Positions 19,928 through 62,885 of a DNA stretch of 64,000 bases are shown one piece after another. Origin of the DNA: a virus. Its lineage: Duplodnaviria; Caudoviricetes. The notes beneath the pieces were generated by a model. It saw only the letters and a program-made list of their open reading frames with translations, ran no database searches and was not told the origin of the DNA. The DNA lies in the IMG/VR virus record IMGVR_UViG_3300017909_004140, positions 32,001 to 96,000 of that record. The stretch is one strand, 5' to 3'. Numbering within the stretch: position 1 is the first letter of the stretch; each line of letters begins with the position of its first letter. The translations under genes and the position numbers were made by a program.

Positions 19928-20386
19928 GTTGTGGCCCGTTCTGTTGCTAGGTGGTGCCATACCCCATTAGACTATGCCGCTAAGGGCATATCCATAGGTG
20001 CAAAATTATCGTTTGCAATTGTTTTATTCTTGCGGTTAAGGTCGCTTGCGCACCTGTCTCTCGATTTGATTTTTATTGAGTCTGTCGATCCTATTTCGCC
20101 CCCATCATAAAAGCACGCGTATCAAACAAAATTGCTCATAGTTTTCTTCAAATCCTGTTTCATAATCTGCAAGAGGAGCTCCATTACTTCCAGAAACCCA
20201 GAGTCTTCTGAAATATCCGTCATAGGAATCTTCTACTTGCTGAGGAGTTACTTTACGAAGGTCTCCCTTAACCATATAGTAAACTCTACATTTTTCTTTG
20301 AATGTTACCATGCGTTTATGGTGGAGGCGCCGGGTACCGCCCCCGGGTCCAGTCCGCCTATTCTATCTCTTCTCAAACGAGACAAT
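19928..20386 (-). ncRNA. ssrA: Permuted two-piece tmRNA: acceptor piece ~20386-20319, intervening segment 20318-20104, coding piece 20103-~19928
   Basis: GGACCCGGGGGCGGTACCCGGCGCCTCCACCA precedes GGGGGCGAAATAGGATCGAC. Acceptor stem GGGGGCG/CGCCTCC has G3:U70. Tag frame 20016-19972 reads ANDNFAPMDMPLAA*. Outer ends are approximate. Confidence 0.93.
20105..20311 (-). CDS. 68-aa hypothetical protein inside the tmRNA intervening segment
   Basis: ATG 7 nt after the CCA end; TGA ends 1 nt before the mature 5' G. Confidence 0.65.
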   Translation of the reverse strand: MVTFKEKCRVYYMVKGDLRKVTPQQVEDSYDGYFRRLWVSGSNGAPLADYETGFEENYEQFCLIRVLL

Positions 20387-20737
20387 TTATTCCTTGAAAA
20401 ATAGCTCTAGTTCGTCTAATATCCAAGTACTAATTTCTAAAGTACCAAATAATATAATTAGCATAAAAGGCACTATTATAAATAAAAATATAGTTAGCAC
20501 TATTTTTTGCCAGCGATTACATTTTTCTACATAAAAATGAGCAAATAGTCTTAATCCGGCTTTAATTTTTTCTTTTAACCAATCTCCGAAGAAATTACGA
20601 AAAAGTCGCATTACTATTAATATAGGAGAAGTTATAACATCCCATACAAGTAATACTACGTCTACTATTAGATCAATAATATGATCTATTGTAAACCAGT
20701 TTTTTATTCTGTTTTTGAAATTATTTTTGTAAACCAA
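20387..20737 (-). CDS. Hypothetical membrane protein
   Basis: Two hydrophobic segments. Confidence 0.6.
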   Translation of the reverse strand: MVYKNNFKNRIKNWFTIDHIIDLIVDVVLLVWDVITSPILIVMRLFRNFFGDWLKEKIKAGLRLFAHFYVEKCNRWQKIVLTIFLFIIVPFMLIILFGTLEISTWILDELELFFKE

Positions 20738-48739: not shown

Positions 48740-48816
48740 GGTTGCGTAGCTCAACAGGATAGAGCAACGGCCTTCTAAGCCGTAGGTTGAGGGTTCGAGT
48801 CCTTCCGCAATCGCCA
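48740..48816 (+). tRNA. tRNA-Arg(TCT)
   Basis: GGTTGCG/CGCAATC acceptor, anticodon arm ACGGC-CT-TCT-AA-GCCGT, GGTTCGAGTCC T arm, encoded CCA. Confidence 0.96.
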
Positions 48817-48818
48817 AT

Positions 48819-48893
48819 GCGGGTATAGTATAACGGCTATTACTACAGCCTTCCAAGCTGAAGATCGGAGTTCGATTCTCCGTACCCGCTCCA
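48819..48893 (+). tRNA. tRNA-Gly(TCC)
   Basis: GCGGGTA/TACCCGC acceptor, CAGC-CT-TCC-AA-GCTG, GTTCGATT T loop, encoded CCA. Confidence 0.95.
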
Positions 48894-52410: not shown

Positions 52411-55271
52411 TGGCAACACCTACTACTGGTGAAATTTCCATCTCAGATTTACAAAATTTATACTCCCCTGTTCGTACAGCTCCTGGAAAACTTGGAGACT
52501 ATCATGCAGGAGGCTCTGTTGTAGCTTCAGGAGAGAAGCTAAGCGGAGGCGCAGGAGCTGCTATTCCTACAGCTCCTAGTGAACTTAGTTTATCAGATTT
52601 TTACGATCTTCGTGCTACTGTTCATGGCGCTGCTTTAACGGCCTCTACGGCTGCTTCAGTATTTGACGGCATTGATGTTTCGTGGACGGCTAGTGGTAAT
52701 GGTGAGTCTGCTGACAGTTGGCAAATTGGATGGAGACCTTCTCCGTCTACAGATGCTTATACCTACCTATCTACTGATTATCAGGGAAACCCTATCACTT
52801 CAACTAGTGCAACTGTTACTATTCCTTCTACTCCAGGTGCTACTCTACATGATTTAGTGGTTCGAGGAATAAATGCTTTTGGAACAGGAGTTGATTCTAG
52901 TCCTCAAACAGCCTATAAAAAAGCTCCTACTGCTGATTATCTTTATGATACTCCTGTAAGCTCTACTGTTGGAAGTATTGCAGGACAAGGTATTAGTACT
53001 GTTCATGTGTATGCTGCCGTTGGTGCTGGTGGGGCAACAGGTCCTTATTTCTTTACAGGCGGTGATGGCCCTGGAGCTGGTGAAAGTCCTTTTTCTGCTG
53101 ATGGAGGTATGTGGTGGTGGCCTCACTATACTTATCAAGTAGATATGGCAGGTGCCGGAGGTGGAGGCTCTGGAGGTATTGGATATAGAGCTACTTCGAT
53201 TCCTGTTACCCCTTCTACTCCTGTTAGTATTACAGTAGGACAATCAACCTCTGGTACTGGCGGCACTACAACTGTCAATATTGGAGGTACAAACTATGTA
53301 GTAGCTAATGGAGGGGCAGTTGGTGGTCGAGGTGGATTAATTACAGGAGGTAGTCCAGGAACTCCTGCTGGATTACCCTCTACATATATCCCAACCTCTC
53401 CAATCGAAGCAATTACAAGCGGTCCAAAAACTGAAGCTAATTTTATGCAAAAAGGATACTTTTATTATAATCCTCCATCAAATAATTGGTATCCTCCTAC
53501 TAATAACCCGACTGTCTCACAATCAGAAGCAGAACAGCATTTCGATCGCGCAGCTACTGCTCTTCGTTGGGGTGTTGCAGGAGATGGTGGTGCAGCTGGA
53601 GGAATTCCTACTGGAACGACTGCTCAAAGTCCTACTCATACAAATTCTGGTGCTGGATATGCGGGCGTTAATGTAGAACACAATAGACCAATTACTGCGT
53701 GGCCAAATACTTTTGGTCAAATGCACGGTGCTGGAGGTGTCGGTTATACTATTACAGTTCCTAATACTGATACGGTACCTGGACTTCCTGGAAATGTTCC
53801 TTTAAACGGCCCAGCATATCCTGGCTCAGGATCTCTTACAGTTAACGTGGGATATGGCAGTAGTTGGAAATCTACTGCATTTCCTGCTCCTTATGGCAAA
53901 GTTTATCAAGATGGAACAGGACATCCTGGAACCACAAGTATCCCTGGTCACGTAGCCTTTTCTGATACCCCAACTGCTCAAATGACAAGTCCTACGTATG
54001 TTGATGAAGCAGGAGATGGGTTTGTTTGGGTTCGTTTTAATGATGCTCCTGGATCTATTTCAGCAACTTCATACTCAGAGTATTCATCCCCAACATGGCC
54101 TACACAACATAAGGCCAATGGAACATCAGTTCCTAGTGATGGAATTAACTATTTTGGTAGAGGACCTGCATTAGTAGGTCCAGCTCCAGGAAGCGGTCCT
54201 TACTCTCCGATTGGTATACCTGCTGGAACAGCGTTTGCACCAAATCATCAAGAACCAATCAGTGGTACCGGTCAGGGAGCGACTATAGGAGGAGGAGCTT
54301 CGTTAACACCCTCTCCAGGCCATGTAAATAAAACTCAAAAAGTTACTTATTTTCCTCTTATTTCCTCTTCAGGTGTTACAGTCGATCCTGGTACATTAGG
54401 ACAAACACAAGCATATACTAATCACGCAGTAACAATATCTCCTGATAATACTAATAAAGCATACTCAGCAGGTGGATACGGACTGTATGTACCTGGCTCT
54501 ACAGATGAAGGTATGCAGACAGCTATTTCACGTTTTGAGTTTCCTTCTACTTCAATCACTTCTTCTGTTACCACGCTTAGTACTGGTAGAGCTTCTCATA
54601 CAGGATTCTCACTTGGAGTTAGCAATAGAGGATATGTAGGAGGTGGATGGACTAGTGGACTTACAGGACCGCAGGCTGCTGTTAATACTATGGAAGCATT
54701 TATCTTCCCATCAGAAACAACTGCTGCAGAGCCAAATAATATTGGAACTGCTCGTATGCATTCAGCTTCTGCAGCTAGTATGGACTATGGATATACAATT
54801 TCTGGAAAAACTACTTTTCCTATTCCTGCTACCACAGGAACAGATGAAATAACTAGATTTGCTGGAGCTTCTGGCTCTACCACAATTTCTGTATCAGATT
54901 TAGGAGAGTTTCCATCTTCAGGAGCAATACTTGCTTGGAGTACTTTAGGGTATATTATGACCTCTGATGCTGAACAAACTGGTTTTTCAACTGTTGCTCT
55001 TGCTAGTAATAATAGATCAGTAAACTATGGAGAACACCGTGATAAGTGGTTTGGAACGCTAAGAAATAATGGATTTTTTCCACAAGCACCGAACGCTACG
55101 GTAGCTGGAACTGCTGTATCAGGTAGAGCTCACGGCTTCTTGCTAACAGCTCCTGGTAGAATTGAAAAGTTTCCTTTCTCTTCTGGTGTTTATGCAGTTG
55201 ATTCTACTCAAGAACTAAGTCCTACCTCTAGTACCTATGGATATGGGTACGGAGCACCTGGAGTTGGTTGA
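52410..55271 (+). CDS. Large Gly-rich adhesin-like virion protein with FN3-like and KFPF-repeat regions
   Basis: PTTGEISISDL...LSLSDFY N-terminus, VSWTA...VRGINAFGTG, GAGGGGSGG blocks, C-terminal IEKFPFSS. Confidence 0.7.
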   Translation: MATPTTGEISISDLQNLYSPVRTAPGKLGDYHAGGSVVASGEKLSGGAGAAIPTAPSELSLSDFYDLRATVHGAALTASTAASVFDGIDVSWTASGNGESADSWQIGWRPSPSTDAYTYLSTDYQGNPITSTSATVTIPSTPGATLHDLVVRGINAFGTGVDSSPQTAYKKAPTADYLYDTPVSSTVGSIAGQGISTVHVYAAVGAGGATGPYFFTGGDGPGAGESPFSADGGMWWWPHYTYQVDMAGAGGGGSGGIGYRATSIPVTPSTPVSITVGQSTSGTGGTTTVNIGGTNYVVANGGAVGGRGGLITGGSPGTPAGLPSTYIPTSPIEAITSGPKTEANFMQKGYFYYNPPSNNWYPPTNNPTVSQSEAEQHFDRAATALRWGVAGDGGAAGGIPTGTTAQSPTHTNSGAGYAGVNVEHNRPITAWPNTFGQMHGAGGVGYTITVPNTDTVPGLPGNVPLNGPAYPGSGSLTVNVGYGSSWKSTAFPAPYGKVYQDGTGHPGTTSIPGHVAFSDTPTAQMTSPTYVDEAGDGFVWVRFNDAPGSISATSYSEYSSPTWPTQHKANGTSVPSDGINYFGRGPALVGPAPGSGPYSPIGIPAGTAFAPNHQEPISGTGQGATIGGGASLTPSPGHVNKTQKVTYFPLISSSGVTVDPGTLGQTQAYTNHAVTISPDNTNKAYSAGGYGLYVPGSTDEGMQTAISRFEFPSTSITSSVTTLSTGRASHTGFSLGVSNRGYVGGGWTSGLTGPQAAVNTMEAFIFPSETTAAEPNNIGTARMHSASAASMDYGYTISGKTTFPIPATTGTDEITRFAGASGSTTISVSDLGEFPSSGAILAWSTLGYIMTSDAEQTGFSTVALASNNRSVNYGEHRDKWFGTLRNNGFFPQAPNATVAGTAVSGRAHGFLLTAPGRIEKFPFSSGVYAVDSTQELSPTSSTYGYGYGAPGVG

Positions 55272-55426
55272 TGAACACATTAAAAGAAGATATTAAAGAA
55301 ATAAAAGATAAGTTATTGAGAATAGAAACAGAAACTCAATCGCTAAAACAATCACTAGAACACTTGTACAATTTACTTGACCAACTTAAAGGAAAGGAGG
55401 GGAATGATGATAACGAGACTACCTAG
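55271..55426 (+). CDS. 51-aa coiled-coil protein (not in ORF track)
   Basis: MNTLKEDIKEIKDKLLRIETETQSLKQSLEHL...; TGATG coupling. Confidence 0.55.
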   Translation: MNTLKEDIKEIKDKLLRIETETQSLKQSLEHLYNLLDQLKGKEGNDDNETT

Positions 55427-55904
55427 TGTAATATTTAAAATTAGAGAAGACGGAGAGTGGGTTGATAGAAGCTCTGATGAAATGTTTGTCGGAACTAACG
55501 TAATGTTTGCACTTCCTGGTGCATTTACACCTACTTGTTCATCTACTCATTTACCACAGTTTGACTTACTATATGATGAGTTTAAAGGACATGGCATAAG
55601 TAATATCTACTGCTTGTCTGTTAACGACTCGTATGTAATGAATGCTTGGGCAAAAGAACTTGGAATCACTAATATTAAAATGATTCCAGACGGAACGGGC
55701 GATTTTACTCGTCAAATGGGTATGTTAGTAAATAAAGCAGACAAAGGATTTGGCTATCGTTCTTGGAGATATGCCTTAGTAACTGAAGGCATGGAAATCA
55801 AGAAAGCTCTTATTGAGTCAGATAGGAGTGATAACACCACTGATGATCCTTTTGAGGTTTCAAGCGCTACTAGCGTATTAAACTATCTAAGAGAGTGTGC
55901 ATGA
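55404..55904 (+). CDS. Peroxiredoxin (Prx5 type)
   Basis: LPGAFTPTCSSTHLP, SVND.YVMNAW, RSWRY. Confidence 0.93.
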   Translation: MMITRLPSVIFKIREDGEWVDRSSDEMFVGTNVMFALPGAFTPTCSSTHLPQFDLLYDEFKGHGISNIYCLSVNDSYVMNAWAKELGITNIKMIPDGTGDFTRQMGMLVNKADKGFGYRSWRYALVTEGMEIKKALIESDRSDNTTDDPFEVSSATSVLNYLRECA

Positions 55905-56713
55905 GCGTTCAGTCTAAAAAAGATAGAAAAAACATCAAAAAGCTATTAAAACTAGTAATTAATAGAGGTCTTGACGACCTCTATTTTTTTGAGCCAAAGG
56001 AGAAATTTATGCCAAAGAGAAATACTCAATTTAAAGTAGTTAATTCAGAACTTGCAACAATTAGACCTAGCAAGAAACTGTACATTGAGGCAAAGAATGA
56101 AAGACAGCAAAGATATATTGATCTAATGAACGATCTTCATACTCATGTTATAGTTGCTACAGGTCCAAGTGGAACAGGTAAAACACTACTAGCAGTATCA
56201 AAAGGAGCAGAAGAGTTTAATGATAATCATTTTGATAAGATTGTGATCACTCGACCTGCTGTGTCAGTAGATGAGGAGCATGGATACCTACCAGGAGACA
56301 TACTAGAAAAGATGGATCCTTGGATGAAACCAATTACTGATATACTGTCAAGCTACTTTTCTAAACAACAACTTGAGTATCTAATGAGAGAGGAGAAGAT
56401 TGAAGTAGCTCCTCTAGCATATATGCGAGGACGTACTTTTAAACACTGTTGGGTAATTGCAGATGAAATGCAAAACGCAACACGCGAGCAGGTAAAAATG
56501 CTACTAACGCGTTTAGGAGAAGGTTCTAAGTTTATCCTTACTGGAGATCTTGATCAACATGATAATGGATATGAAGAAAATGGACTAGCACACTTTATGG
56601 ATCGTCTTGTGCATCATGGCGCAACAGACTATATTAAGTATGTTGAGTTTACTTCAGCAGATATTGAGCGACATCCTGTAGTACGCGAGGTGTTAGAAAT
56701 CTATCAAGATTAA
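55895..56713 (+). CDS. phoH: PhoH-family ATPase (start may be 56009)
   Basis: GPSGTGKT, RPAV, GYLPG, PLAYMRGRTF, DEMQN, LTRLG, GDLDQ, RHPVV. Confidence 0.95.
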   Translation: MCMSVQSKKDRKNIKKLLKLVINRGLDDLYFFEPKEKFMPKRNTQFKVVNSELATIRPSKKLYIEAKNERQQRYIDLMNDLHTHVIVATGPSGTGKTLLAVSKGAEEFNDNHFDKIVITRPAVSVDEEHGYLPGDILEKMDPWMKPITDILSSYFSKQQLEYLMREEKIEVAPLAYMRGRTFKHCWVIADEMQNATREQVKMLLTRLGEGSKFILTGDLDQHDNGYEENGLAHFMDRLVHHGATDYIKYVEFTSADIERHPVVREVLEIYQD

Positions 56714-56745
56714 CTGTCTAACTACAATTTATAATAAATTTTGCA

Positions 56746-56795
56746 TTGCTCAATCCTTAAAAATTTTATAATATATATTTATTGATTGAGTGAGA
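56746..56795 (+). promoter_or_regulatory. T5-like promoter P1
   Basis: TTGCTC-17-TAATAT, then ATTGATTGAGTGAG. Confidence 0.65.
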
Positions 56796-57015
56796 AGGCT
56801 AACGGCATCACTCTGAGCTCGCGACGGTAGGAATGCCTGCTCTTAGCTGTAAGCAAAACATCAATCGTGCTTGTACCAGACGAAAGGTACAGCGTCATGT
56901 GACAACGAGAACAGTCACCGCGTATAGGCCACAAGACTGAGTTTAGACGTCTAACAAACCGTGCTCAAATCTTAATGCCTGGGGAGGCGCGAGATACCTC
57001 CCCATCAATTTTTTT
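56781..57015 (+). ncRNA. Candidate structured ncRNA 1 (~230 nt)
   Basis: No ORF; hairpins GAGTGA/TCACTC, TGTACC/GGTACA, GTGAC/GTCAC; ends in TGGGGAGG/CCTCCCCA stem plus T-run. Confidence 0.6.
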
Positions 57016-57016
57016 G

Positions 57017-57064
57017 TTGCTTATTGCTTAAATTTTTTATATACTGTTTATAGAAGTTGAGAGG
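57017..57064 (+). promoter_or_regulatory. T5-like promoter P2
   Basis: TTGCTT-17-TATACT, then ATAGAAGTTGAGAGG. Confidence 0.75.
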
Positions 57065-57220
57065 ATAACCTTCTAGAAAAAACCTCTTCTAAAGTCTCTG
57101 GGCGAGTGCTACGAGTAAGGAAAGCAAGCAAGCCAACGATGCGATCTGTATGAGGCAGTGAGCTAGGCACTTAAAACTTAACCTTCGCTAGTACAGAAAC
57201 TACTCTCGCCTGTGATTTTA
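57050..57220 (+). ncRNA. Candidate structured ncRNA 2 (~165 nt)
   Basis: AGAGG/CCTCT hairpin, then nested GGCGAG/CTCGCC, TCTGTA/TACAGA, AGTG/CACT. Confidence 0.55.
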
Positions 57221-57223
57221 TAG

Positions 57224-57275
57224 TTGCTAGATCGTTAAAAATTTAGTATTATATATTTATAGAAATTGAGAGAGG
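57224..57275 (+). promoter_or_regulatory. T5-like promoter P3
   Basis: TTGCTA-17-TATTAT, then ATAGAAATTGAGAGAGG. Confidence 0.75.
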
Positions 57276-58290
57276 CATCATCCTCTGGGCTTCGGTTCTC
57301 CGCTTCGGCGCGCTTGAACAAAGTGAAAGTTAAAATCCAGTTAATGATGCAACGGAGTCACGGAATCGGTCTCAGCCTCTTTCTCTCATGGCGCTGAACG
57401 TATTTTGTTCTGGCCGCCAGCAAGTCCTGGTCTGATAGTTCAGATAAGAGCAATTATAGCCACCAGGCAGTTATATGAGTAGTTTCGGTAAGGATAACCT
57501 ACTTTAAAAAACCTACCTCAAAGTGTGAACAAGTCTAGATTGAACACACTTTGGTTAGCACTGAGAGTTTCGGCTGTCAGTTCCGCGCCGTTGGCTGTAA
57601 AGCTTGATCAGGCGGATTCTTGTCGTGAGATGCAATTCACGAGTCGGGGAGGAGCTATGCATTGCGCACCTCAAGGTAACTGGCGAGGTTGGTGGCGGTT
57701 ACACTTTTACTCAGGCTGGACAGGCTAGCGTGTGTCCTATGTCACAAATCTTTCGAGAGGTCGGAGTAAATTATAGACTTACATTGTTGAGTCACTGAAC
57801 AGTTGAAGAATGAAGGGCAACTGAATTTTGGAAGCTGATCACACCTCAGCGCTTGCGTTGAGCATACTTTAGCAGTGTAGGGGAGAAGCGACGGCTTTTC
57901 CAGCTCTCCGAGGGGGAGATGCAGTAGAAACAAGGTCTATAGCGTTTCGTGACTGCAACCTTATTACGGTTAGCTCGTTTGGGGGGGCTTATACAGTCGA
58001 GTAGACAGACTTCATCCACCTGTCGTCTCCTGTATAGAGATGGTACGAGCGATTAAGCGGCGGGCGAGGTGCTGGCTTAATATTTTGAATTGAACTGGAC
58101 GCTAACTCCAGCCGAAGCTTAGGCTTGTAAAGTTAGCAGAGCTAGGTAAGCTGTTACTCATGTGAGGCCTTGCCGCTGAATTAGATTCGGGCGAAAGACA
58201 GCGCAACAAAAAGGAGAATCTAGAAAACTTGGGCAACCAGCTTTCTAGGAGTAACTGGGCGTAACCTCGTGTTGCGCCCTTTTGCCTTTT
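57259..58290 (+). ncRNA. Candidate large (~1 kb) structured ncRNA or ncRNA polycistron
   Basis: More GC-rich than flanks, no credible ORF, many hairpins including two C(UUCG)G loops, long-range pairing, bounded by promoter P3 and a terminator. Confidence 0.7.
58257..58290 (+). terminator. Intrinsic terminator
   Basis: GGGCGTAAC-ctcgt-GTTGCGCCC-TTTT. Confidence 0.8.
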
Positions 58291-58320
58291 AGCAAAATAT
58301 AAATTTAGGCAATTTTATAC

Positions 58321-58370
58321 TTGCACGGCGTGGAGATTTTTGGTAATATATAATTAACAAATTGAGGAGA
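58321..58370 (+). promoter_or_regulatory. T5-like promoter P4
   Basis: TTGCAC-17-TAATAT, then AACAAATTGAGGAG. Confidence 0.65.
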
Positions 58371-58448
58371 CGCACATTCTGCGGATCTCAACGCCAATTC
58401 AAAATTACTATACGTAAATGGAGTCTTGGCAGAAACACGTCTCCTCAC
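58356..58448 (+). ncRNA. Candidate small structured RNA or leader 4 (~90 nt)
   Basis: Perfect 10-bp closing stem TGAGGAGACG/CGTCTCCTCA enclosing CGCA/TGCG and GCCAA/TTGGC stems. Confidence 0.5.
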
Positions 58449-58456
58449 CTATCATC

Positions 58457-58714
58457 ATGGAGAAGCAGTTGTATTTAGTACGACGCACACTTAAAGGTCA
58501 TGAGGTCTCATCTTGGGGCGAATCTAGCGAACCGCTGGCAGTCTATCATGTAGGCGCTCGCTGTTCCTGTCCTAGTTATCGCAAGCCTTGCAAGCATCAG
58601 CGAATGGTAAAGAAGCATATCTCACTATCTGAGCCTCCAGGACAAGTCTACGATATCTCGCCCGCGAACCGCGTGATCGCACTACACTCTCTTCTAGAAT
58701 CTAGCACTTCTTAG
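58457..58714 (+). CDS. SWIM-type Zn-finger protein
   Basis: YHV...CSCPSYRKPCKH; start moved downstream of the RNA stem. Confidence 0.65.
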   Translation: MEKQLYLVRRTLKGHEVSSWGESSEPLAVYHVGARCSCPSYRKPCKHQRMVKKHISLSEPPGQVYDISPANRVIALHSLLESSTS

Positions 58715-58791
58715 ATATAAGAATTCAACTTTTGACAATTGGTCAAATTCATGTTACTTTATAGGAGAGAAAAAAAAGAAACGGAGTTTCA

Positions 58792-58899
58792 ATGCGCAGG
58801 CGAAAACGCCAAGAGATCTATGCGGCTCAGTTAAAAGTATTGTTTTTAGTATCACCACTTGCCGCTACAATTGCTCTTATGTATTCTATATTTCACTGA
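58792..58899 (+). CDS. 35-aa membrane peptide (not in ORF track)
   Basis: MRRRKRQEIYAAQLKVLFLVSPLAATIALMYSIFH; GGAG SD; promoter TTGACA-17-TACTTT. Confidence 0.5.
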   Translation: MRRRKRQEIYAAQLKVLFLVSPLAATIALMYSIFH

Positions 58900-59044
58900 G
58901 TTTGCATACTGAGTGATGAAATCACTACTAGTGTCACGCCACCCGTGCGCCTACATTTTAGGCTTGCTATGCGGTGGCTTTTTTGTTATAATTAATAATA
59001 ATCGGAGGGCAGCGCTCGCACGGAGTGCGACAGAGGAGGTGAGA

Positions 59045-59278
59045 ATGAGACGAGCAATACAAAATGGTAATTGGATTTCATTTTATGAAAACAACAAACT
59101 AGTTGGCAGAGTTGATTACTCAGAACGAGCACAGGTCTATAGAGATAAAGCTTGTCATAATTGGACTAGTGGTGTATTACAACCAGAAACTGTTTTAATG
59201 TTTGCAGATGAACAACTTGAGTTTGATTTTGATGTTCATCAAGGTGGCGTAGAAAACTGGGCTAAGTATAATGCCTAG
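59045..59278 (+). CDS. Hypothetical protein
   Basis: GAGGAGG SD before ATG 59045; promoter TTGCTA-17-TATAAT near 58964. Confidence 0.6.
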   Translation: MRRAIQNGNWISFYENNKLVGRVDYSERAQVYRDKACHNWTSGVLQPETVLMFADEQLEFDFDVHQGGVENWAKYNA

Positions 59279-59501
59279 GCGAACAAACGCTGGTCATATT
59301 ATTCCTGAGTCTTCTGAACATTCTAGAGCGACTCTTTGGAACGCTAAAGAGAAGTTTGAGGTACACTCGGAAACTTCGTTTCCTTGTCCTGATGACAGTC
59401 ATCCTCTTTTTACAATTAGAGTTTCAAAGCAACAGCCTACCGCAACCTGTTATTATTGTAGCAAAACTTGGATACTAAATTTAGATGTTAAAGAAGACTG
59501 A
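59271..59501 (+). CDS. zf-CHCC-like zinc-finger protein
   Basis: CPDDSHP...CYYC. Confidence 0.6.
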   Translation: MPRRTNAGHIIPESSEHSRATLWNAKEKFEVHSETSFPCPDDSHPLFTIRVSKQQPTATCYYCSKTWILNLDVKED

Positions 59502-59769
59502 GGTATATAAGCTATTTGATGATCTATCAGTGGAACCAGATACTACTATTCTATCTGCGGCTTATGGTGTTCGAGACTCTATACCTTTTAGAGTAGAAGA
59601 GTGGTCTTGGGATGGTATACAAGGTAAAACAATAGTTTTACACTCTGAACACTGCCCTGCGCTAGTAATTACAGAAGAAGATCTTAAAAAGAAGTTTGAT
59701 GTTGAAGGCAGCACTACTTTTAGAAAAACAGGGCAATACTATTTTTTGAACTATGACTTCTCTATTTAA
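59485..59769 (+). CDS. Hypothetical protein
   Basis: ORF track; overlapping operon. Confidence 0.55.
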   Translation: MLKKTEVYKLFDDLSVEPDTTILSAAYGVRDSIPFRVEEWSWDGIQGKTIVLHSEHCPALVITEEDLKKKFDVEGSTTFRKTGQYYFLNYDFSI

Positions 59770-60232
59770 AGGCACAGCAAACGCTGAACAACTATTTATA
59801 TTAACCTATGCTGAGTTAGATAAGCATCAGATTGTTAATAAAATTTCTCGTGACGAAACCTGGTATCGAGAAAGGCATGAAGGATGGACCTACATTCTCA
59901 ATAAACTGATAAACAGTTTTAATGCAGAAGGCATGAAATATCCTATCTGCATTATGTTTAAAGAGGGTAGCTATAATTGTTGTCATGGAGGACAACGACT
60001 AGCTGCAGCAATGAAATCAAATCTTACTACAGTACCTTGTATTATTGCATGGAGAAATTATGATATCGACAAAATTCCAGCTGACTCCCACTTCATTTCT
60101 GATTTACGAGAATTGGATTCTCTTAATCACGGTGATGTTGAGCGTATACATCTGAGTGGTGGCGGGTTCGAGATTTTAGTTAAGGATAGAAAGCATTGGG
60201 ATCCAAATGACTATATGGACAAAACTACTTAG
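59753..60232 (+). CDS. ParB/Srx-like domain protein
   Basis: LINSFNAEGMKYPI...HGGQRLAAA...VPCII. Confidence 0.65.
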   Translation: MTSLFKGTANAEQLFILTYAELDKHQIVNKISRDETWYRERHEGWTYILNKLINSFNAEGMKYPICIMFKEGSYNCCHGGQRLAAAMKSNLTTVPCIIAWRNYDIDKIPADSHFISDLRELDSLNHGDVERIHLSGGGFEILVKDRKHWDPNDYMDKTT

Positions 60233-60554
60233 TACAGTAGCAGCTACAGTGTTGCTATCGAACTCTGCTCTAGCTGAACTAGAGTGGAGACAGAAGCCTG
60301 TACAGTGTGGTCCTAAAGATAGTTTTTTGAACCTAATACTACAGGCTGATGAAATAGCACTAATGGCAGGGCTAGGACAAATAAAAGTACAAGGTTCTTA
60401 TTATCGTGTTCCGATCTATATTTTTGCTAATACAGAGACAGGCACTTTTACTATTGCAGAGATGCATATTGAGAATGATGAAATTTGTGTTTTAGCTTTT
60501 GGAGCCAACACAACTTTTGATGTAGAAACTCCTAACTTAACAGAGAGATGGTAA
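60207..60554 (+). CDS. Secreted hypothetical protein
   Basis: Signal peptide; KPVQCG...TGTFTI.E...CVLAFG. Confidence 0.6.
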   Translation: MTIWTKLLSTVAATVLLSNSALAELEWRQKPVQCGPKDSFLNLILQADEIALMAGLGQIKVQGSYYRVPIYIFANTETGTFTIAEMHIENDEICVLAFGANTTFDVETPNLTERW

Positions 60555-60727
60555 TGGAAAAATTTAACAAACGCCCCTTGAGGTTTGATTCTACTCCTAA
60601 CTCTCCTATTTTACAGGAGATGCGCAAACCTCAACTAATGCTGGTGAAGTATAATGACTATGGAGTACGTAAGTTGAAAAAAAGACTTAAAGACGCAGAA
60701 GAGTATAGTAAAAGAAAGTTTCGTTAA
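60554..60727 (+). CDS. 57-aa basic protein (not in ORF track)
   Basis: Fills the gap; TAATG coupling. Confidence 0.5.
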   Translation: MEKFNKRPLRFDSTPNSPILQEMRKPQLMLVKYNDYGVRKLKKRLKDAEEYSKRKFR

Positions 60728-61387
60728 ATGAATATTTACATCGGTTATGATCCAAAATACCCTAAAGTGTACGAAGCCTGCACTAATTCTATTTTTAGAA
60801 GCACTAACAGTCCTTCTTTCTACACTGTAACTCCTCTTGATCAACAAAAACTAAGAGACTCTAAAGTTTACTGGAGAGAAGAAGATGATAGAGCTTCTAC
60901 TCCTTTTTCGCTTACTCGTTTTTTAGTTCCTCTATTGAACGGATATAATGGATGGGCGCTATACTGCGATAGCGACTTTATATTCTTAGATGATATTAGC
61001 AATCTACTTGCTCTAAAAGATGATACTAAAGCAGTGATGGTAGTGCAACACGACTATGAACCAAAACTTGGTTTTAAAATGAACAGAAAGGTTAATCATA
61101 CATATAGACGAAAGAATTGGTCTTCTCTTATGTTGTTTAACTGTTCTCATATTGCCTGTAAAGGATTAACTCCAGAGATAGTTAATGGTTTTGATCCTGC
61201 TGATTTACACCAGCTTGCTTGGTGCGATGAACATGAGATAGGAGAGTTACCAACAAAATGGAATCATCTTGTGGGATACTATGATGATCCTAATCCTAGC
61301 GCAATTCATTTTACTGATGGAGGTCCGTGGTTATTAGGATATGAGAATGAACCTTTCGCAGATAAATGGAGAGAATATTGCTCATAG
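60728..61387 (+). CDS. GT8-like glycosyltransferase
   Basis: IYIGYD, STPFSLTRFLVP, YCDSDF, RKNWSSLMLFN, WNHLVG, HFTDGGPW. Confidence 0.85.
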   Translation: MNIYIGYDPKYPKVYEACTNSIFRSTNSPSFYTVTPLDQQKLRDSKVYWREEDDRASTPFSLTRFLVPLLNGYNGWALYCDSDFIFLDDISNLLALKDDTKAVMVVQHDYEPKLGFKMNRKVNHTYRRKNWSSLMLFNCSHIACKGLTPEIVNGFDPADLHQLAWCDEHEIGELPTKWNHLVGYYDDPNPSAIHFTDGGPWLLGYENEPFADKWREYCS

Positions 61388-61926
61388 ATATTCTCAACTT
61401 TATTGATGATAGAGATGTTTATATCATTTCTTCTGGAGTTCCTCTACAAGACGTTAAGATTGAGGGAGCCCCTGTCTTAGTACGGCTTAACTCTAGTCGT
61501 CGGTGGGGAGACTGTGATATTTGGTTTAATAATCAGTCTCAAGATCCAAGATTTCAACGAGACTCTCGAGGCTCTGGTAATGAAAAATACATTATTCGTG
61601 CTAATGGAGATAATGATGGTGCAAATATGCGCCGTAACTATCCAGAAGAGTTTTTACCACATACATACTTTTGGGATGTTGAAAACTGGAAAAATATGAC
61701 AAAAGAGATGCAAATAGATAGACCTCTTACAGGAACTATTGCTGCATACTGGTTTCACAAGTATACAGAATCTACTATACACTTAATAAACTATGACTTT
61801 TATGAACAAAACAAAATACACACTGTGAGAAATATTCCACAGCCTGCCCCTGTTCACAAGCCTTGGCTCGATAAGGCATTTCTAAATACTTTAGATAGAA
61901 TACAGTATGGATGGATTATTCCATGA
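61366..61926 (+). CDS. Hypothetical protein with possible sialyltransferase-like fold
   Basis: LVRLN...RPLTG.IA...LINYDFY...H resembles sialyl motifs. Confidence 0.4.
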   Translation: MERILLIDILNFIDDRDVYIISSGVPLQDVKIEGAPVLVRLNSSRRWGDCDIWFNNQSQDPRFQRDSRGSGNEKYIIRANGDNDGANMRRNYPEEFLPHTYFWDVENWKNMTKEMQIDRPLTGTIAAYWFHKYTESTIHLINYDFYEQNKIHTVRNIPQPAPVHKPWLDKAFLNTLDRIQYGWIIP

Positions 61927-62885
61927 TTAAACACGCATCAGTCGAAATAAATGGTGGGTGCAACTATGCTTGTCCTATGTGTCCTCAAGCAGAAGGGAGA
62001 GAAAAAGCATTTCTCAAAAAGTTACCACTAGAGACCTATAGAAATATTATATCTCAACTAGCCGACCTTGGCTGTAAAGAGATAAATCTTCAAGGAAGTG
62101 GCGAGCCTTTATTAAATAAGAACATTGACGAGTATATTAGATATGCTTTTAAAAATGGTATAGATTGTAATATTGTAACAAACGGTCATAATCTAACTGA
62201 TGATATGTCAAGTAAATTGATTGACGCTGGGTTGAAAAACATCAGAGTTAGTGTAATTGGATATACACCTTCTCTCTATAAACAGTGGATGAGTAAAGAT
62301 GCTTTTTCTACCGTCTACATGAACGTACATAAATTTATGAAAAAAGCAAAAAGTTCTTACACAACTATTTCATCTTATCACTTAATTTTAGATAACGATA
62401 AAAAAGAAGAGGAAATACTAGCCTACAAACAGTCTTGGATTGATCCTCTACAAATTGAAGCAGAGATATGGGAAATGCATAATTGGGGAGGACAGTATGA
62501 TACTCCATACTCTCGTGAAACTTTACAAAAACGTTCTTGTGGTAGACCTTTTGCTCCTTATCTAAATGTAAGAGCAGGAGGACTTGATGGAAAACATGGA
62601 GCAGTAGTTCCCTGTTGTTATGTGTTAGGGCAAGATTCAAAAGCAGTGCTAGGACATCTAGACACACAAACTATTGAAGAAGTATGGAACTCTGCTGAGT
62701 ATGAACAATTACGTGCTGCTCATAGAGAAGAACAATTCGATTCTATAGACTACTGTAAAGACTGTGATCAACTCTATGACGCTCCTGATTCTTTAGTGTG
62801 GACTAATATAAAAGGCAAGAAATACGGACAACATAAGATAGACAAATCATTTGACTTTAGGGATTTTGTTAAAGATGCGCGGTAA
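61911..62885 (+). CDS. Radical SAM enzyme with SPASM/twitch domain
   Basis: CNYACPMCP, GSGEPLL, CGRPF...VVPCC...LG..IEEVWN...CKDC. Confidence 0.93.
   Translation: MDYSMIKHASVEINGGCNYACPMCPQAEGREKAFLKKLPLETYRNIISQLADLGCKEINLQGSGEPLLNKNIDEYIRYAFKNGIDCNIVTNGHNLTDDMSSKLIDAGLKNIRVSVIGYTPSLYKQWMSKDAFSTVYMNVHKFMKKAKSSYTTISSYHLILDNDKKEEEILAYKQSWIDPLQIEAEIWEMHNWGGQYDTPYSRETLQKRSCGRPFAPYLNVRAGGLDGKHGAVVPCCYVLGQDSKAVLGHLDTQTIEEVWNSAEYEQLRAAHREEQFDSIDYCKDCDQLYDAPDSLVWTNIKGKKYGQHKIDKSFDFRDFVKDAR

Follow-up and report, generated by a model that had tools for sequence, protein, structure and literature searches.

This locus raises the question of what is encoded by an intergenic stretch of about 1 kb in the genome of an uncultured marine phage: a single large structured RNA in the manner of GOLLD and ROOL, or something built in a different way. 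The window (the whole stretch of DNA analysed, 64,000 nt) comes from an IMG/VR virus record of 107 kb whose completeness is estimated at 91%. The flagged ~1 kb sits in a 1.7-kb gap between two protein genes (56714-58417), with a GC content of 44-45% as compared with ~35% for the phage. No ORF in this gap stays open across relatives, and the window's short ORFs are interrupted in relatives by stop codons and frame-shifting indels. The main elements of the locus are as follows:

55895-56713: PhoH-like gene (phoH), left neighbour of the gap
56779-57016, + strand: unit U1, with a terminator at 56981-57015
57050-57222, + strand: unit U2, opening with a paralogous pseudoknot
57224-57258, + strand: promoter P3, with its -35 at 57224-57229 and its -10 at 57247-57252 (consensus scan)
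58257-58279, + strand: stem of an intrinsic terminator with a T run to 58290 (terminator scan), conserved with compensatory changes
58418-58714: SWIM-like ORF of 98 aa, right neighbour of the gap

Four paralogous promoter boxes (repeat family D1), beginning at 56746, 57017, 57224 and ~58320, are present in the gap and delimit U1 and U2, the flagged unit and the SWIM-like gene's mRNA. The flagged unit is the largest member of the 1.6-kb array that it forms with U1 and U2; compensatory changes are seen in the alignment of U1 and U2 as well. P3 is conserved in all relatives, and transcription from it is predicted to start near 57259.

Within the 61 nt around P3, a 57-nt stretch matches intergenic sites of T5-like phages (Demerecviridae) at ~79% identity; these phages have several such sites per genome, just upstream of protein genes. 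This likeness marks the promoter as one of the strong early T5 kind (sigma-70). Like T5 early promoters of the PN25 type, it consists of a -35, a 17-nt spacer and a -10, followed by a conserved transcribed tract from ~7 nt in. The use of this tract is different, however: here it supplies the 5' strand of the helix that closes non-coding RNAs, while in EPS7, the only T5-like site inspected, it stands directly before a protein gene. There it would serve as the ribosome-binding region, as in T5 PN25.

The homologous gaps of related phages were recovered by PhoH-based and pattern-based scans. Two relatives are nearly identical to the window (L035, 98.9%; L010, 94.5%), two more clades (L002/L039/L028 and L003/L004/L027) have 70-88% identity with large indels, and in a distant group the pieces are re-arranged (L040+L026, L037, L042, L043, L064, L068, L154, L167 and L179). 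Comparison with these sequences divides the flagged unit into the following parts, all on the + strand:

57259-57475, + strand: module M1
57259-57389, + strand: M1a, the 5' domain, with a closing helix of 57268-57276 with 57375-57383
57390-57475, + strand: M1b, a highly conserved 86-nt segment (alignment)
57476-57789, + strand: module M2, the most abundant RNA piece in the libraries
57477-57517, + strand: H-type pseudoknot at the start of M2 (repeat D3)
57790-58292, + strand: module M3
57790-57881, + strand: variable 5' part of M3
57882-58085, + strand: conserved core of M3
58086-58139, + strand: insert with a hairpin, present only in the window and L035 and absent from L010 and all others
58140-58224, + strand: R1 motif, the last module (covariance model R1)

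The predicted folding energy of these modules is ordinary. The MFE z-scores relative to dinucleotide shuffles are -0.49 for M1, -0.14 for M2 and -1.14 for M3, so that the initial description of the region as highly structured does not hold on energetic grounds (-0.1 to -1.1, no better than shuffles), and the case for structure rests on comparison. The + strand folds better than the - strand (-341 vs -295 kcal/mol) and is also favoured by the promoter, the terminator and many conserved G-U pairs.

Covariation was found in all three modules. In M2, 52 RNAalifold consensus pairs were 99.5% paired and 16 of them carried double changes; when the 3' partners were slid by 1-3 columns as a control, only 34-51% were paired, with 1-2 double changes. 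M3 has 92 such pairs (23 with double changes) and M1 has 46 (7 with double changes), but the relatives represent only 3-4 clades and these counts of compensatory changes are therefore inflated by shared descent. There are also blocks that are invariant although overall identity is 70-80%. Every arm pair that had been picked out by eye in the initial annotation was found at its place; six of the local stems are conserved in relatives, mostly by compensatory change, and three are lineage-specific:

57519-27 with 57545-53, + strand: conserved stem, in one clade only
57706-12 with 57764-70, + strand: conserved stem
57920-25 with 57952-57, + strand: conserved stem
57973-78 with 58045-50, + strand: conserved stem
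58053-58 with 58075-80, + strand: conserved stem
58220-26 with 58242-48, + strand: conserved stem, the 3' hairpin within 58219-58290, with compensatory changes
57800-05 with 57818-23: lineage-specific stem
57882-89 with 57894-901: lineage-specific stem
58101-07 with 58131-37: lineage-specific stem inside a 50-nt insert missing from L010 and all others

Within M1a, the closing helix encloses inner helices of 57275-81 with 57344-50 and of 57285-89 with 57336-40, and a covarying hairpin is located at 57356-57374; the helices show double changes and are kept in 8/8 sequences. The two C(UUCG)G loops reported earlier are indeed present, at 57290 and 57303, both in a variable hairpin region. M1a was also found in L043, L037, L064, L068, L154 and L179, each time behind a promoter box of the same type and with different downstream sequence, and its closing helix and 3' hairpin covary among those six contigs. 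M1b, in turn, was found in this phage clade only. It should be mentioned that the M1a 3'-strand pattern (14 specified bases) gave a result swamped by chance matches.

The border between M1 and M2 (57475|57476) is an insertion hot spot, where relatives have nothing, a 59-nt insert or a 710-nt insert. The last of these, in L028, contains an ORF for a 235-aa sulfotransferase followed by a -35, a 17-nt spacer and a -10 before M2. At the border between M2 and M3, six relatives have a full promoter box at the point homologous to 57789/57790, and a ~41-nt deletion removed this pre-M3 box in the lineage of the window. The M3 core is composed of the three covarying stems 57920-25/57952-57, 57973-78/58045-50 and 58053-58/58075-80 together with invariant tracts, G-rich at 57910-19 and 57981-88 and C-rich at 58013-23. 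Its pattern was found in this phage clade only: in the pattern scans the stricter M2 and M3-core patterns matched only this clade or chance sites in GC-rich coding DNA, and a first M2 3' pattern gave mostly chance matches. The distant group has the modules in other combinations and interspersed with protein genes, among them a B12-binding radical SAM gene and a small ORF.

Judged from this comparison of sequences, M1, M2 and M3 are separable units in relatives, and the flagged 1 kb is a chain rather than one closed fold. What stands of the ~1 kb RNA proposed initially is a non-coding, structured product with a promoter on its 5' side and a terminator on its 3' side; the single closed fold does not.

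The principal alternative is that the region is one integrated, ornate RNA of ~1 kb that would form a new class akin in style to GOLLD and ROOL; M1-M3 would then be domains of a global fold, perhaps of an oligomer. One promoter and one terminator do enclose the whole stretch, and the size and phage origin fit. The feature said to hold such a fold together was a long-range helix, 57473-82 with 58154-63, proposed to close a domain of ~690 nt. This helix turned out to be unconserved and at chance level: its 5' arm is invariant while its 3' arm changes without compensation, 5 of its 10 pairs remain in L002 and L039, and the 5' arm is split by the 59-nt insert in five relatives and by the 710-nt insert in L028. 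By our own arithmetic, ~30 10-bp helices of Watson-Crick and G-U pairs are expected by chance in 1 kb. The 3' arm is better explained by a local covarying pseudoknot (part of R1, see below). When helices kept in all eight full-length sequences were sought without bias, convincing covariation was found in local helices only and no convincing long-range helix emerged; the few long-range candidates borrow arms that belong to covarying local stems. The invariant G- and C-rich tracts of different modules could still make tertiary or long-range contacts that are unable to covary. An intramolecular pairing of the anti-SD-like tract 58013-23 with G-rich tracts was considered and dropped; neither side varies, and the two match imperfectly.

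In relatives the modules are separately promoted or parted by a protein gene, and the 3' module stands by itself in many other phages, in very different contexts, both of which speak against a single fold. Neither the GOLLD (RF01998) nor the ROOL (RF03087) model matched, at gathering score or at E<=10, and the OLE model (RF01071) gave no match either; moreover, the neighbours are phoH and the SWIM-like ORF, not oleB/oleC. The locus does share with GOLLD and ROOL its phage-borne location, a length of several hundred to ~1000 nt, the lack of coding capacity and many covarying local helices, and one of its building blocks (R1) also occurs beside tRNAs, in L219. It differs from them in having no conserved global architecture and in that its units are separate genes in relatives.

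Expression was assessed from contigs of four metatranscriptome runs of two studies, marine and aquatic, aligned to 53000-62000. The contigs are confined to U1 (56781/56784-57036), M1 (57268-57439 and 57308-57468), M2 (57511-57789 at depth 540, 57506-57963 and 57492-57959) and the start of M3. They give neither ends nor strand, and the contig start at 57268, seen in two runs, is not a mapped 5' end. No cover was found on 53000-56600 or 58117-62000 except for short redoxin-gene fragments running into unlike sequence, and this selectivity argues against DNA carry-over. Cover is also absent on U2 (57050-57222), on 57468-57492 and beyond 57963, although these holes are no evidence of absence. Several contigs match only 57338-57380 and then diverge, with loose ends at 57377-83, which indicates expressed relatives sharing M1a. 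For the question of a single RNA the contigs cut both ways: one contig in each of two runs crosses the M2/M3 border at 57789/57790, whereas in one run M1 has a depth of ~25 and M2 of ~540, a difference of ~20-fold that speaks against one integrated molecule. Taken with the evidence above, we regard a single ~1 kb RNA as unlikely.

Thus, the flagged region is a real, non-coding, transcribed and structured RNA of no catalogued family. The initial annotation had been ready to give up the RNA if its energy were no better than that of shuffled controls and no expression were found; the energy is indeed at shuffle level, yet expression and covariation are both present, so the RNA is not refuted. The reading that we consider probable is composite: an array RNA gene made of three end-to-end, locally folding modules, which in relatives stand as separate genes or occur in other combinations. 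One T5-type sigma-70 promoter (start ~57259) and one terminator (58257-58290) would bracket M1, M2 and M3, each of which would fold locally, M2 opening with its H-type pseudoknot and M3 ending in the widespread R1 pseudoknot. The primary transcript would be ~1,030 nt long and may be trimmed into, or decay to, stable RNAs of module size; such processing is suggested by the unequal depth (M2 ~20x M1) and by the fact that no contig spans 57468-57492.

The pseudoknot that opens M2 is composed of stem 1 (57478-82 with 57499-503) and stem 2 (57487-93 with 57512-17), with an invariant loop 2 (57494-98) and a loop 3 consisting of an A run. A paralogue is located at the 5' end of U2 (57052-57088). The stems are invariant within M2 orthologues, and it is paralogues and distant copies that support them: when orthologues and paralogues are compared, one double change is seen in stem 1, and there are at least four complementary versions of stem 2. 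In layout this element resembles the preQ1-I aptamer (RF00522): both are H-type pseudoknots whose P1 has 5 bp and whose loop 3 is A-rich; the first loop has 2-4 nt and the second loop ends just before the return strand in both. The second stem, however, has 6-7 bp here instead of 2-4, and neither a queuosine gene nor any other follows the element; more non-coding RNA does. The preQ1-I model, which requires conserved loop nucleotides, did not match in the 55-nt search at E<=10, nor did any other Rfam pseudoknot riboswitch model.

R1 is also a pseudoknot. In the window (58140-58224) its helix A (58144-47 with 58167-70) and helix B (58150-55 with 58197-202) cross each other, an invariant hairpin with a 17-nt signature lies at 58172-58192, and a conserved Shine-Dalgarno-like tract lies at 58210-58218. 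Helices A and B covary, being 95-96% paired with up to six double changes per pair. The invariant 17-mer was found in 42 IMG/VR stretches where ~7 were expected by chance. In 596 Gb of bacterial genomes it occurred 18 times as against ~70 by chance, and 0/18 occurrences had the motif context. With a covariance model made from 15 copies, the copy in the window, the single one in this genome, scored 92.1 bits (E 1.7e-17), and 45 full-length matches were obtained in the loci examined. Rfam at gathering score named no family for R1 in 11 R1-bearing loci, and blastn of a stand-alone R1 copy against phages returned terminator hairpins only.

Eight distinct R1 copies start <=3 bases from the stop codon of a ~300-codon ORF, and both ORFs scanned among those eight are gp32 genes of T4-like marine phages. 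In other contigs R1 follows other ORFs, and in L219 it lies between tRNA genes with no terminator nearby. A gp32 homologue was not detected in the genome of the window, a weak negative given that the control genomes were equally silent. R1 is physically tied to the gene 32 mRNA in T4-like marine phages, as is the autoregulatory pseudoknot of T4 gene 32, but it is found at the stop codon and not in the 5' leader. As with 3'-UTR-derived bacterial sRNAs, a conserved single-stranded tract and then a terminator come after R1. In the parts of the literature on viral candidate RNAs that were accessible, there is no description of these motifs, and the gp32-associated candidates described there lie upstream, not downstream.

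These two pseudoknots are central to a second alternative, a cis-acting leader or read-through control. The pseudoknots would then be ligand or protein sensors, riboswitch-like or similar to the HK022 put antitermination elements, that gate the terminator at 58257-58290 toward the SWIM-like gene and those beyond it. The preQ1-I layout of the U2/M2 pseudoknot is in line with this idea, as are the regular position of R1 some tens of nucleotides ahead of an intrinsic terminator and the invariance of its loop across very different phages. Against it, the SWIM-like gene has a separate conserved promoter of its own (P4), R1 can stand in a tRNA array away from any terminator, no riboswitch model matched, and what comes after the U2/M2 pseudoknots is non-coding RNA and not a gene. 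Control of read-through is a distinctly unlikely explanation for the locus.

A very diverged or fragmented known RNA (RNase P RNA, tmRNA, 6S RNA or an intron) is highly improbable. In its favour, the phage carries tRNAs and a permuted tmRNA, and short strings in M1b, M2 and M3 resemble, by eye, conserved strings of bacterial RNase P RNA. These strings are nevertheless in the wrong order and spacing, and the tmRNA is detected normally elsewhere, at 19930-20430; with the two tRNAs, it is the only hit of Rfam 15 in the whole window at gathering scores. The gap gave no credible match to any of 4227 Rfam models at E<=10, whether searched as 2.1 kb or as sub-stretches of 546, 521 and 55 nt. This includes the RNase P models (RF00010, RF00011 and others) and those of group I/II introns, in agreement with the initial inspection, which had seen no signature of either; in addition, the stretch lies between complete genes and has its own promoters and terminator, unlike an intron. 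The absence of Rfam matches therefore excludes the region from GOLLD, ROOL, OLE, RNase P and the introns. SRP, 6S and 5S identities were considered and dropped. Comparing the whole gap by blastn with 50,697 phage records brought no match, and searches of the neighbouring genes in PHROGs and Pfam revealed no RNA-binding partner.

Decayed coding DNA or a neutral spacer with chance stems is hardly credible: shuffle-level z-scores and the many short chance helices would suit it, but compensatory changes far above those of the slid controls, invariant blocks at 70-80% overall identity, conserved promoters and terminators and the selective presence of the region in RNA libraries do not.

As to what the composite gene might do, we tentatively propose, with low certainty, that the host polymerase makes its modules early as abundant RNAs with protected ends, which may bind a conserved host machine and act as decoys or scaffolds during host takeover. 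A host machine is favoured by loops that are invariant in unrelated phages (in R1 the loop shows 100% invariance from T4-like to unrelated phages, pointing to a conserved target in the host), by ends buried in helices or pseudoknots and by very high RNA levels. The 30S subunit or protein S1 would be a first guess, prompted by the invariant Shine-Dalgarno-like tracts beside the pseudoknots. A broader proposal, which we hold to be still more doubtful, is that marine phages of unrelated lineages share a portable RNA kit (R1, M1a and the U2/M2 pseudoknot) strung into highly expressed early transcripts; each block might be a new ligand-, ribosome- or protein-binding class used for takeover, and R1 at the gene 32 stop codon might serve as a 3' translational or stability element.

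Non-coding RNAs of phages have been charted far less than their proteins. At this one locus there are several uncatalogued, covarying RNA modules, which dominate the signal of the phage in the four metatranscriptome runs, and one of them, R1, is present in no fewer than 45 viral loci and seems to be missing from bacterial genomes. Should the modules turn out to be decoys or sensors, they would constitute a new layer of host takeover. At 85-300 nt each, they are of a size that suits direct biochemistry and structure determination. The notion of a giant RNA is corrected as well, as the size of the region appears to come from concatenation.

Finally, abundant phage-encoded stable RNAs are made together with or next to tRNAs in T4 and T5 (species 1 and 2; bands C and D in the tRNA regions). 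The modules described here have no detected sequence relation to any cultured phage, and R1 lies inside a tRNA array in L219. The tRNAs of the window are located at 48740-48890, and the RNA array does not adjoin them.

The pseudoknot motif R1, found only in viruses, also occurs in other gene settings outside the array. In eight copies it begins at the stop codon of an ORF of ~300 codons or at most 3 nt from it. Another copy lies within a tRNA array.

L193:4756-4838, L186:823-905 and others: R1 copies at an ORF stop codon
L219:4900-4985: R1 copy in a tRNA array

In four of the eight stop-codon copies the TAG stop itself is part of R1 helix A, and some of the eight are followed on the 3' side by a terminator. 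In both cases in which the preceding ORF was scanned (L193 and L186), it was gene 32 (gp32, PF08804); judged by this gene, the two contigs are T4-like marine phages. The copy in the viral contig L219 starts 4 nt 3' of one tRNA, with the next tRNA ~90 nt further on. This position suggests that R1 may be released there by tRNA processing.

In the window, the RNA array contains two structured units upstream of module M1 and is followed by the leader of the SWIM-like ORF.

56779-57222: structured RNA units U1 and U2
58320-58417: promoter and leader of the SWIM-like ORF

Both U1 (~238 nt) and U2 (~173 nt) show compensatory changes and have separate promoters; U1 also carries a terminator and was found in RNA libraries. 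Over 14 nt, the 3' part of U2 (57192-57205) shows 93% complementarity to the beginning of M2 (57477-57490), a stretch that includes stem 1 of the M2 pseudoknot. Both arms of this putative pairing are invariant in the nine close relatives, and covariation is therefore uninformative; the complementarity is missing from the distant group of relatives. The fourth promoter box marks the start of the SWIM-like ORF mRNA, whose leader of ~60 nt is strongly conserved and contains a hairpin (58352-58383) invariant in all relatives.

In two relatives, L028 and the more distant L040, protein genes are inserted between the RNA modules.

L028:3304-4011: sulfotransferase, 235 aa
L040:11711-13345 (minus strand): B12-binding radical SAM protein, 544 aa

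Known RNAs were found both in the window and in contigs bearing R1.

Window 19930-20430 (minus strand): tmRNA gene, circularly permuted, alpha-type two-piece (123.5 bits)
Window 48740-48890: pair of neighbouring tRNA genes, ~8 kb ahead of the RNA array on its 5' side
L188:3238-3290: glutamine riboswitch aptamer, RF01739 (57.3 bits)

A tmRNA of the same kind is present in L186 and L195, both unrelated viral contigs that bear R1. The marine viral contig L188 carries R1 together with its riboswitch aptamer.
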